From Octopus vulgaris (Eukaryota), in NCBI GenBank assembly GCA_951406725.2, contig OX597817.1, positions 70,866,001 through 70,930,000 on the forward strand: DNA of 64,000 nt, written 5' to 3'. Position numbers and translations under genes: made by a program. Positions 32,541 to 64,000 of the stretch are shown here, in pieces. Each line of letters opens with the position of its first letter. The stretch's first letter is position 1. The notes under the pieces are model-generated. The model saw nothing but the letters and a program-made list of their open reading frames with translations, was not told the origin of the DNA and did no database searches.

Positions 32541-32693
32541 GCGTTAACAGCCCTTCTTGTCTTGTTATTTTCCTTGTCCTGTCTTTTACTGCTTATATTT
32601 TGTACTGTCGTTACTGTCCTGGTTTTGTTACCATTTTACCCCTCTGCAAAAAGATCTCAAATTTGATTTGATTTTCTTTTCGCAGGAAGGAAA

Positions 32694-32769
32694 GTTTCTT
32701 ATCGAAGATACGTCTCGCCTTCACCTTCGAAACGTAGAGTAGATGAAACCATGGCGACTGAAGAAGGGT
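32694..32769 (+). ncRNA. Candidate non-circularly permuted (pseudoknotted) hammerhead ribozyme, family 1 copy 1
   Basis: tacgt-C-tcgcc ... ccttc-GAA-acgta ... ggcga-CTGAAGA-aggg. Stem III is tacgt/acgta, stem I is tcgcc/ggcga, stem II is weak, and the GUC site is at 32714. Confidence 0.65.
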
Positions 32770-33508
32770 TTTTTCCTTGTGTTATTTGTCCTGTACTCTA
32801 TTTTTTGTTGTTTAAGAAAAATGTCCAGTTCCTCGTGTTTGTGTCTATGTTTTCGTTTCTCATTGTGTTCGACGTTTTGTTGGTGTCCTGTACTCATATA
32901 TATGCGTGTATATATACATGTAAAGGTAGGTACGTACATATATGTATATATGCATATGTTTTATTTATTGATATATTATATGACGGAACGTACGCATCCC
33001 TTTCTAAGTAAGATTGTTCTTGATATTTATTTTGATGCGCACTCTTAACCTTTCTGTCCCATCCCTTTCTCAGCCTTCATTCTTTGATTTCCTTTTCTTC
33101 TACTTAACTGTCTCTCCCTCTCTCTCATTCTTCACTCTCTCTCTCCCTCTCTCTCATTCTTCATGGTTTCCTCACAACCATTCCCCTTTCTTCTTTCCCT
33201 TTCTCTTGCTCCTCCTCCTCCCTCCCGTTGTTGACCTGCGACGAGAGCTCCCCTACTGTCTTTCTAGCCGGACCTTCTTGAGGTGTGGACGGCAATTTTC
33301 TTTGCTCCGTTCGCCGTTCACAGAAATTAACGTTCGTAATACTTTTTTTCGTTCGGCGTTAACTGCCCTTCTTGTCTTATTATTTTCCTTGTCCTGTCTT
33401 TTACTGCTTATATTTTGTACTGTCGTTACTGTCCTGGTTTTGTTACCATTTTACCCCTCTGCAAAAAGATCTCAAATTTGATTTGATTTTCTTTTCGCAG
33501 GAAGGAAA

Positions 33509-33585
33509 GTTTCTTATCGAAGATACGTCTCGCCTTCCCCTTCGAAACGTAGAGTAGATGAAACCATGGCGACTGAAGAAGGGGT
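33509..33585 (+). ncRNA. Candidate non-circularly permuted hammerhead ribozyme, family 1 copy 2
   Basis: Same motif 815 bp downstream, with GUC at 33529 and the stem II region ccccttc / agggg. Confidence 0.65.
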
Positions 33586-56499: not shown

Positions 56500-56608
56500 A
56501 AGTGTAAAAACATATAATAAATGCACAAACAAACGGAAAACAGACACAGAAGGTCGCCAAATCCTCGTCAGGTATCGGCCAGAGGATCAAACACAATTCT
56601 TCACCTTA
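56500..56608 (-). mobile_element. Truncated copy of the family 3 element (see 63408-63480)
   Basis: aaacatataataaatgcacaaacaaacgg...cctcgtcag.tatcggccagagg.tcaaa is shared with 63355-63440. Confidence 0.8.
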
Positions 56609-61528: not shown

Positions 61529-61760
61529 TGTAGTTTTAAGTTACATGTCTTGGAAGCTCTGGGACGCATCATCAGCGATGTTTCTTGGGTTCCCAGGGAT
61601 TTCGGATCTTTCAACACCAGACCCTCTCGTTCAGTTGACCTAGCCGGTGTCGACCAAGCCCCAGCTTGCATCTCAGTAAACCAGTGGTTTACTCTCTTTA
61701 TCCGAAGCCACTTGATGATTACTTTGTCCGACATAATATATGCTGACTGTTATCAAGTGC

Positions 61761-62775: not shown

Positions 62776-62981
62776 CGACACACACACATGTCTACATACA
62801 TACATACTACCGTTATTGTTTTTACGTTTTTGTATTCTTATTCGTGCTTTCCTTATTGTTGTCACGTATTCTGTATTTTTATTCGTGTACTTCGTTCGTT
62901 TTCCGTCCTTGTGTTGTATACATTCGAGGCTTTCTTCCAAGGGATCTAATGCGCTTGGCTTAGATTTCCCTTGGGGGCTGC

Positions 62982-63057
62982 CCAGATCGGAGCAATCTCA
63001 AGATTAATCAGCCGAAATTGCGAAGATGATCTGGTTCTTGACTGATGACTGAGGGCT
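62982..63057 (+). ncRNA. Candidate non-circularly permuted hammerhead ribozyme with kink-turn, family 2
   Basis: ccagatc-gGA-gcaat-C-tcaaga-ttaatcagcc-GAA-attgc-gaa-GA-t-gatctgg-t-tcttga-CTGATGA-ctga-gggct. Confidence 0.7.
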
Positions 63058-63140
63058 TCGAATGTCCCGTCCTGTGGTTCTTGTGCCGTCTCCTTGGTGT
63101 TTCTGTTCTTGTCCATGTTTGTATTTATTTTTTACTGTTT

Positions 63141-63228
<88 letters not shown>

Positions 63229-63407
63229 TAAACACAAATAACCGTGCGTGACATTCCATTTTTTAATTTTTTTTATTTTATCTAGTTTCAGCTCACGAGC
63301 TGTGGCCATGCTGGGGCACCGCCATATAATATAACTTAAATAATAAGTTTTTAAAAAACATATAATAAATGCACAAACAAACGGGAAACAGACAAAGAAG
63401 TTCACCA

Positions 63408-63480
63408 AATCCTCGTCAGTTATCGGCCAGAGGGTCAAATGCAATTTCGCTCCTTAACGATAATACAGAATCCCCTCTGG
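63408..63480 (-). ncRNA. Degenerate non-circularly permuted hammerhead with kink-turn, family 3
   Basis: Minus strand: ccagaggg-GA-ttctgt-A-ttatcg-ttaaggagc-GAA-attgca-ttt-GA-ccctctgg-c-cgataa-CTGACGA-ggat. Confidence 0.55.
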
Positions 63481-64000
63481 TGACGCCAACAGCGAGAGTC
63501 AGCGGGAAGATTATATATAATCCATGCTTGAAATTATATAATTATTCAAATATATTGCCCTTATAATCGTTTCTATAATTAGAATATATAACCAACAACC
63601 GTCATTCGCCTGTAGTATACGACTCGGTAGCATGTTATCATGTTTTGGCAATTTTTTTTAGTTGCCTATATAGTGGCGAACAGACTTAGACAAACACTTC
63701 GCCCACTTTTGACCCAATAAACCATCGATGGTGTAACTGTTGTAGGAAGAGAGGGGATGTACTAGCACGTAGCTGGTATTCATTTTCAGCTAGGTAGACT
63801 GAAGCAACGAGAATTGAACTACCTAACCCAAGGACACAACACGACACCAAGTTAATGTACTGAACCTGACCGCAAGATCATAAACCCACTGCTTTTGTTA
63901 CTAGGCCATATACCTTCACATCTAGAATATAAGTTAGTTGCATATTTTTGAAAATCTGCATTTCTAGTGGTAGATCCATGTCACTAAGGATCCTCGGGAT

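Follow-up and report, generated by a model that had tools for sequence, protein, structure and literature searches.

Non-circular permutations of the hammerhead ribozyme, types SGC and CSG, occur in nature, and CSG was the second one to be validated (Eckert, Friedrich, Weinberg and Weinberg, NAR 2023, PMC10085705). In type SGC, as set out in that paper, an S block, a tether of ~3 nucleotides (nt), a G block, and a C block follow one another, and stems I and II are clamped on their other sides by a further helix. Both types cleave in vitro at the predicted site, and SGC requires all four of its helices. The examples given there come from IMG/M metagenomes and metatranscriptomes and from one bacterial RefSeq record, often near hairpin ribozymes. 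Here, we analyzed 64,000 nt of the Octopus vulgaris genome (NCBI GenBank assembly GCA_951406725.2, contig OX597817.1, positions 70,866,001 to 70,930,000 of the forward strand), referred to below as the window and numbered from its first letter. A repeat copy on its minus strand (63486..63413) carries the bases of a hammerhead core in a further strand order, and we describe the families of repeats that share this motif.

Two groups of mobile elements are relevant to the carriers of the motif. Canonical type I hammerheads are reported from Penelope-like elements and animal retrozymes (PMC4209133, PMC7229834, and bioRxiv 10.64898/2026.07.22.740005). Naiads, as described by Craig et al. (MBE 2021, PMC8557442), have an N-terminal GIY-YIG domain, a preference for (TA)n, 5' truncation, and tandem or inverted arrangements. 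That paper describes Naiads as lacking canonical hammerheads, with half-cores to which stems were not fitted. Eight consensuses are flagged there as 'HHR_half_core', including the octopus Naiad_Ovul with its (TA)n insertion preference.

Hammerhead core elements in the family-3 copy

The initial annotation had listed an outer helix, a GUA site, a stem I, a 9-nt segment before GAAA, a 1-nt link, and CUGACGA on the minus strand, and all of these are present. Read 5' to 3' on the minus strand, the motif begins with the stem II 5' strand (positions 10.1-10.5; 63482..63486), which pairs with 63449-63453 at four of five positions here and at all five in the family consensus. The 5' strand of the outer helix, hereafter the clamp (63473..63480), pairs perfectly over 8 base pairs (bp) with 63427-63434, and this helix covaries among families. 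The stem III 5' strand (63469-63465, ending in U16.1) and H17 (A63464) occupy 63464..63469 and contain the GUA at 63466-63464; cleavage is predicted between 63464 and 63463. Stem I strand 1.1-1.6 (63458..63463) forms a perfect 6-bp helix with 63420-63425. The segment 63441..63453 comprises the stem II 3' strand (63453-63449, ending in C11.1), G12 A13 A14 (63448-63446), and the stem III 3' strand from A15.1 (63445-63441); GAAA itself is 63448-63445 and follows the 9-nt segment. The last part of the motif, 63413..63434, holds the clamp 3' strand (63434-63427), the 1-nt link (63426), the stem I 2.x strand (63425-63420), and CUGACGA (63419-63413).

This copy is a dead relic. Its stem III pairs at four of six positions, the count given in the initial annotation and obtained again on rereading the strand, or at three of five if the positions closest to the core are taken; stem II pairs at four of five, and the 5' end is truncated. 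The decay suspected earlier is thus borne out. Stem II had been placed 3' of CUGACGA; about 1 bp does form there, but the position was wrong, and the true partner strand opens the motif on its 5' side.

A 221-nt query around the site was compared with the octopus's own 2.8-Gb genome, yielding 40 scored matches out of 666 first-look candidates. The window copy (63345..63508, minus strand), which is mutated and 5'-truncated at ~63508 next to a TA-rich stretch, was aligned with 32 other genomic copies. Across these 33 copies C-GAAA is kept, CUGAUGA is read, stem III is paired at 4-5 positions, and stem II at 5/5. The consensus thus has both GAAA and stem III pairing, the two features whose loss the annotation had named as decisive. 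It had also pointed to a sister copy near 56590 that reads aagaattg in place of this block; the reading is accurate, but it is not that of the family. The sister copy (56505..56608, minus strand) has lost its 5' part up to a point a few nt 3' of the predicted cleavage site and adjoins a (TACA)n run; its GAAA block is mutated at CpG positions, and its CUGACGA lies at 56571-56565. Family-3 copies share a common 3' end, often followed by simple repeats, whereas their 5' starts vary, with homology reaching up to ~900 nt upstream.

One layout in nine (sub)families

Nine (sub)families were compared. Four have copies in the window, four come from other parts of the genome, and the ninth, which matches the published octopus Naiad consensus, was entered by its intact copy L372. 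When the window was scanned for a UH site together with a 6-bp stem around GAAA and CUGANGA next to it, families 1 and 2 and a new family 4 were recovered. Subfamily 2c and families 6 and 7 turned up in scans with the full and relaxed descriptors described below.

All nine follow the same order. The stem II 5' strand, starting at G10.1, is followed after 0-3 nt by a clamp strand and after a further 3-10 nt by the stem III strand, U16.1, and H17. After the cleavage site come the stem I strand, a tether of 2-5 nt, the stem II 3' strand ending in C11.1, and GAA, continued by the stem III strand from A15.1; 6-11 nt later the second clamp strand follows, then 0-2 nt, the second stem I strand, and CUGANGA. 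The core strands therefore occur in the order cleavage-site block, GAAA block, CUGANGA, and the stems cross. Partner strands are never farther than 75-90 nt apart. The clamp measures 5-8 bp, and among families a shorter clamp goes with a longer joint. CUGANGA, the G10.1-C11.1 and A15.1-U16.1 pairs, and GAA are invariant in 9/9 families, C-GAAA is unchanged in all nine, and H17 is A or C, never G. The base directly 5' of G10.1 is G in seven of the nine families and U in the other two.

Stem II was recognized in families 1-3, where the 5 nt directly 5' of GAAA, ending in C, pair with a 5-nt strand beginning in G directly upstream of the outer helix (GAAGG/CCUUC, GGCUG/CAGCC, and GCGCC/GGCGC). 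It was then treated as a prediction for further families. The prediction held in the 30-copy consensuses of families 5 and 4, which have a perfect 5-bp stem II (GAGCA/UGCUC and GGGUC/GACCC), a clamp helix, and fully paired stems I and III, and likewise in families 6, 7, and 2c and the Naiad type. No consistent partner strand 3' of CUGANGA, where stem II had initially been assumed, was found in any family.

Statistical support for the helices

Counted from structural parses of the nine (sub)families, stem I has 50 of 54 possible pairs with both sides changed at 6/6 positions, stem II 45 of 45 (4/5 positions), stem III 44 of 45 (4/5), and the clamp 45 of 45 (5/5). When 3' strands were exchanged between families, none of 20,000 exchanges reached the observed number of pairs for any helix, the exchange means being 23-29 pairs; an eight-family version of this test, which used all 14,833 derangements, had the same outcome. 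Because a parse chooses its registers, the 48 nt upstream were also shuffled and reoptimized. The shuffled sequence attained the observed 10/10 stem II and clamp pairs in 2-137 per 1,000 trials, depending on the family.

A second test used nine real, partly decayed copies aligned with MAFFT. This alignment loses the register of stem II and the clamp, so those two helices were counted from the structural parses only. For stems I and III, 84.8% of alignment cells were paired compared with 62.2% in shuffles (0/500 as high), and the covariation score was 0.707 compared with 0.286 (0/500). Both partners change in nine of the 11 pairs, and slid controls were 26-50% paired.

Descriptor searches gave a similarly sharp separation. 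A simple descriptor (UH, stem I, GAAA, and CUGANGA) had 86 matches in 356,426 nt, comprising the window and 90 loci, and none in the reversed sequence. A full four-helix descriptor had 137 matches in 737,641 nt and a relaxed one 158, again with none in reversed sequence. Rfam returned no match in the whole window at the gathering threshold, no ribozyme in 63000-64000 at E values up to 10, and no hammerhead or other ribozyme in 20 further loci. The entries for hammerhead types I, II, and III and their relatives include RF00163, RF02276, and RF00008. This silence is expected because covariance models cannot follow the strand order of the motif.

The initial annotation had proposed an architecture common to several repeat families, with stems that compensate among them, and had considered a chance resemblance unlikely. 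Families 1, 2, and 3 do share the layout, a fourth family joins them at 61641..61569, the helices differ in sequence yet pair, and neither the reversed controls nor the compensating helices of nine families leave much room for chance. Its suggestion of an old, diversified class also fits one layout with differing helices in nine (sub)families, the ribozyme activity of that class being predicted.

Copies in the window and in the genome

Intact motifs occur in the window at 62976-63048, 32686-32764, and 33501-33579. The first belongs to family 2 (plus strand, all four helices intact), with predicted cleavage after C62997. Its stem II is formed by 62976-62980/63009-63013, its clamp by 62982-62988/63028-63034, its stem III by 62992-62996/63017-63021, and its stem I by 62998-63003/63036-63041; CUGAUGA is 63042-63048. 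The other two are the first and second tandem units of family 1 (both plus strand), with predicted cleavage after C32714 and C33529, 815 nt apart. Copies are 96-99% identical in both families, with 3,811 first-look candidates for family 1 and 2,739 for family 2, and by this measure the two families are young. Family 5 has 4,187 first-look candidates in the genome.

Family 4 is old, at 70-80% identity and with 77 first-look candidates. Its window copy (61569..61641, minus strand) is decayed: the core CUGAUGA (61575-61569), C-GAAA, and a GUC site are kept, and stem II and the clamp are mutated. The consensus of 30 family-4 copies has all helices. At C18:39603993-39604767, a ~118-nt subunit of this family (query positions 89-182) forms a tandem array of at least six head-to-tail copies.

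In contigs of four public runs, position 62981, which in family 2 is the single nt joining stem II to the clamp strand, reads G over C in most of the depth; this joint base therefore varies among copies or subfamilies. Family-2 31-mers were found in runs labeled with five organism codes (A-E), at shares of 0.39-0.83, and near-identical family-2 copies seem to exist in related species.

Several further observations concern the surroundings of family 3. In locus L021, an open frame resembling the C-terminal tail of ORF2 of long interspersed nuclear elements (oriented positions ~386-650), followed by (TGTA)n, lies just upstream of a family-3 copy and is unrelated to the motif. A GC-rich word (ggcggtgccccagcatggcc...) at 63285-63330 of the minus strand, 3' of the window copy, recurs in another locus (L097) and is probably a separate short repeat. 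Two other folds were tried on the window copy and rejected: a hepatitis delta virus (HDV)-like double pseudoknot fitted by eye has wrong spacings and neither P1.1 nor P4, and a transfer RNA-like or B-box reading of the C-GAAA region lacks an A box and a T-arm hairpin.

Carriers of the motif and their probable relation to Naiads

The repeat units of the window families measure ~0.75-1.0 kb, and no open reading frame (ORF) was found in the units traced. Microsatellites of the (TA)n or (TG)n type adjoin both unit ends. At 63146-63222, a (CA)n(TA)n microsatellite separates the family-3 copy (minus strand) from the 3' end of the family-2 copy (plus strand), which fits insertion of these elements into microsatellites. 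Tandem units occur in family 1 (the window pair, 815 nt apart) and family 2 (pairs 761-763 nt apart), and head-to-head inverted, truncated pairs make up 2 of 42, 5 of 45, and 4 of 44 listed matches. The window families show traits that Craig et al. give for Penelope-like elements: truncated 5' ends, partial tandem copies, neighboring copies in inverted orientation, and microsatellites as targets, the preference for (TA)n being that of Naiads. Unlike Naiads, they have units without an ORF, and their helix sequences are not those found in the Naiad consensus.

Read by eye, the Naiad_Obim and Naiad_Ovul consensuses (supplement of PMC8557442) show the whole layout near their 3' ends, with the motif ~95 nt before the end and with still other helices: stem II GACAC/GUGUC, clamp CGGAU/AUCCG, stem III AUGGU/ACCAU, and stem I CUGCCC/GGGCAG. 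A pattern running from the G block to CUGAUGA of this type had 228 + 228 (456) exact matches in the genome, compared with 0 + 0 for the backward control. The connection with Naiads is drawn from the published consensus, because all 30 Naiad-type loci that we fetched are truncated. Most likely, judging from the features shared with Naiads, the carriers of the motif derive from Naiad-type Penelope-like elements and are non-autonomous.

Penelope-like elements with a C-terminal GIY-YIG domain were considered as the autonomous partner and rejected: the motif was absent at the 50 loci searched, and BLAST comparison of the family bodies with 30 of the loci gave scattered, non-colinear matches. These elements are abundant in the genome (6,136 first-look candidates, frames up to 781 amino acids, and 148 listed places with PF01541). 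Their 3' regions carry repeated units ending in TGATGACGTC; neither an Rfam hammerhead nor the permuted motif was found in these elements.

Two further Naiad consensuses, from a nematode and a squid, were also inspected. The nematode consensus that stands just before '>Naiad-3_Nbra' in the same supplement ends, by eye, with a complete type-CSG hammerhead: a long clamp strand, a stem I strand, CUGACGA, a stem II strand, and a clamp strand; a stem III strand, UC, and the cleavage site; and then a stem I strand, 4 nt, a stem II strand, GAAA, and a stem III strand. Non-circularly permuted hammerheads may thus be present in Naiads of other phyla as well. At the end of the squid consensus Naiad_Esco, CUGAUGA and GAAA lie 46 nt apart, and no good stems could be fitted.

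5' ends of copies relative to the predicted cleavage site

All queries used to sample 5' ends lay entirely 3' of the predicted site, which kept the selection of copies free of bias from upstream length. Among 45 unique family-2 copies, four start at position 1.1, next to (TA)n, none at -40..-1, and 13 at +2..+40. Of 55 unique family-1 copies, two start at the site, two at -40..-1, and ~19 at +3..+33. Family 5, read by eye, has 35 unique copies, with two starting at 0/+1, none at -40..-1, and ~15 at about +2..+40. Among 30 copies of the Naiad type, two start at the site, 602 nt apart, and 6-7 at -19..-43. A contig of one public run (assembled contigs; the kind of run is a guess) also breaks at 62998, adjoining (TA)n. 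The contigs of four public runs, out of 24 of this sort, were fragmented at the repeats, and such contigs cannot reveal RNA ends. The step at the site fits templates that would have ended there, and the clusters at ~+6 to +10 could be explained by microhomology joining within the next few nt.

Interpretation and alternative explanations

We read the window copy as a dead member of a retroelement family that bears a strand-rewired hammerhead, predicted from its conserved core and covarying helices to self-cleave after H17, and we give this reading a probability of roughly two in three. Because hammerhead structures have stems I and II next to each other, a short tether between them and a clamp at their far ends fit together; we infer that the geometry is plausible, since the clamp and the 3-10-nt joint can run back along the stem II/stem III stack. 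The clamp and tether would hold the two stems side by side, the role that loop-loop contacts play in ordinary hammerheads. By cleaving itself, the motif would release RNAs of unit length (815 nt in the case of the window's family-1 pair) from read-through or tandem transcripts, with 5'-OH and 2',3'-cyclic phosphate ends, as in retrozymes, and some of these might be reverse-transcribed into copies starting at position 1.1. The layout itself could derive from a type-CSG or -SGC ribozyme through the partial tandem duplication typical of Penelope-like elements.

A more far-reaching proposal is that the motif is a seventh natural topology, the SGC/CSG order broken between A9 and G10.1, which is active in vivo in an animal, represents the missing Naiad ribozyme, and processes tandem transcripts of thousands of non-autonomous elements to unit-length, possibly circular, RNAs that are retrotransposed into (TA)n. 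We offer this tentatively, at a little less than even odds.

Several results weigh against self-cleavage or against the link to Naiads. PMC10085705 assumes each block to be uninterrupted and allows natural hammerheads at most 1-2 extra nt at A9/G10.1. A helix of the two flanks that would close this break was rejected as a general feature. A 7-bp version is possible in family 2 (62969-62975 with 63049-63055) and family 6 (L016), and such a helix is notable only in these and in 2c, being missing in families 3, 4, and 5; shuffles matched it in 206/5,000 (family 2), 108/5,000 (family 6), and 665/5,000 (2c) cases. The families are related by descent, so conservation of the core alone is not independent evidence. 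Nested minimum free energy folding gives no signal for intact copies (z +0.7 to +1.6), and the z of -2.9 for the family-3 copy in the window is driven by its 8-bp helix; such folding is uninformative for a pseudoknot. The spike of 5' ends consists of small counts, and positions beside (TA)n are ambiguous by ~1-3 nt. The two Naiad-type starts at the site lie close enough that they may be one event, and this type shows no depletion upstream of the site. Many ends fall at +2..+40, where reverse transcriptase (RT) stops in the fold or microhomology joining could explain them. The 30 Naiad-type loci are all short, with at most 322 nt upstream and no Naiad ORF among them, and the 50 loci (30 + 20) with C-terminal GIY-YIG Penelope-like ORFs have no motif downstream.

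Some of these points would be accounted for if the knotted fold were a structural signal that does not cleave, serving RT recognition or priming or RNA stability, with its core bases kept for folding or protein binding. Covariation proves selection for pairing, not catalysis, and ends at +2..+40, inside the fold, are what structure-induced stops would yield. RT recognition elements of retroposons such as non-LTR (long terminal repeat) elements usually sit near the 3' end, and the motif lies ~95-330 nt from it. A break between A9 and G10.1 is, in addition, without precedent among the hammerheads considered in PMC10085705. Related permuted forms nevertheless cleave in vitro according to the same source. 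Moreover, all hammerhead-defining bases are invariant and correctly placed relative to the stems in nine families whose helices differ, and copies begin exactly at the predicted scissile bond in four families. We therefore consider a purely structural signal unlikely.

A hammerhead might also be assembled between two copies, in tandem units or in two RNAs, with the 5' strand being one partner of several. One published study, by its title, reportedly has Penelope-associated hammerheads acting as dimers, and small Penelope-like hammerheads would provide the model. Tandem units are common here (815 nt apart in the window and 761-763 nt in family 2), and the break after A9 leaves the 3' chain free. 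The covariation is local, however, with partner strands within 75-90 nt; the 1-3-nt joints to the clamp suit an intramolecular fold, and stem II has no partner 3' of CUGANGA in any family, all of which makes assembly between copies improbable. Finally, CUGANGA and GAAA are short words that could resemble a hammerhead by chance in T/G-rich repeats and be spread by transposition, and Rfam reports no hammerhead. Against this stand the 86, 137, and 158 descriptor matches with none in the reversed controls, the different compensating helices of nine families, and a stem II that was predicted and then confirmed in new families. Chance resemblance is effectively refuted.

Comparison with known ribozymes

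The predicted self-cleaving hammerhead of the octopus families has counterparts in other systems in which ribozymes occur in retroelements or in unusual arrangements. The discontinuous hammerhead of the CLEC2 3' untranslated region in mammals self-cleaves and resides in cellular transcripts, with the canonical order and a long insertion. In non-LTR elements, the HDV-like ribozymes at the 5' end are double pseudoknots that define retroelement RNA ends; they differ from the octopus motif in having another core and in cleaving at their own 5' edge. With hammerheads the octopus motif shares the core bases (CUGACGA, GAAA, and GUA in the window copy) and three covarying helices, with the G10.1-C11.1 pair in 9/9 families. 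Its order is not a circular permutation of types I-III, and it does not form their three-way junction free of core pseudoknots. Like the type I hammerheads of Penelope-like elements and retrozymes, it lies near the 3' part of the element, occurs in tandem units, and would cut multimeric transcripts. Unlike them, it has another strand order and no Rfam hammerhead match, and its carriers insert into (TA)n as Naiads do.

Non-circular ribozyme permutations were first reported in 2023, from environmental sequence and one bacterial record (PMC10085705). An animal genome with at least nine retroelement families bearing such a motif, in hundreds to thousands of copies, adds abundant natural covariation. 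Naiads have been described as proliferating without hammerheads; the octopus Naiad consensus bears the motif, and a type-CSG form was recognized by eye in a nematode consensus. These elements offer a system for asking if self-cleavage, and perhaps circular RNAs, play a part in the life cycle of Penelope-like elements that target microsatellites and of their non-autonomous derivatives. In the literature searched, with subscription journals outside its coverage, we found no report of an A9/G10.1 break or of permuted hammerheads in animals or Penelope-like elements. Non-circularly permuted hammerheads as such were already known; what is new here, in a motif predicted to self-cleave, is the break point, the host (an animal genome), and the carrier (Naiad-type retroelements).

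The closest relatives of the motif are types SGC and CSG. It shares with them the cyclic order of the blocks, a stem I-II tether of a few nt, a clamp helix, two core pseudoknots, and all classic core bases. In particular, the order S, G, C of type SGC is present, with a tether of 2-5 nt and a clamp of 5-8 bp (45/45 pairs). Block C, in contrast, is interrupted: in 9/9 families the stem II 5' strand stands at the start of the motif, and in none does it follow A9. The stem II strand and a clamp strand are thus detached from CUGANGA and moved to the 5' end, and the motif is found inside retroelements with thousands of copies in an animal genome, unlike the sources of SGC and CSG. A block presumed unbreakable is broken in the octopus version, which makes a testable structural claim: if the motif cleaves, the backbone link between A9 and G10.1 is dispensable, and search descriptors for hammerheads need widening. 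In its predicted secondary structure, the octopus motif is the SGC/CSG ring opened between A9 and G10.1.

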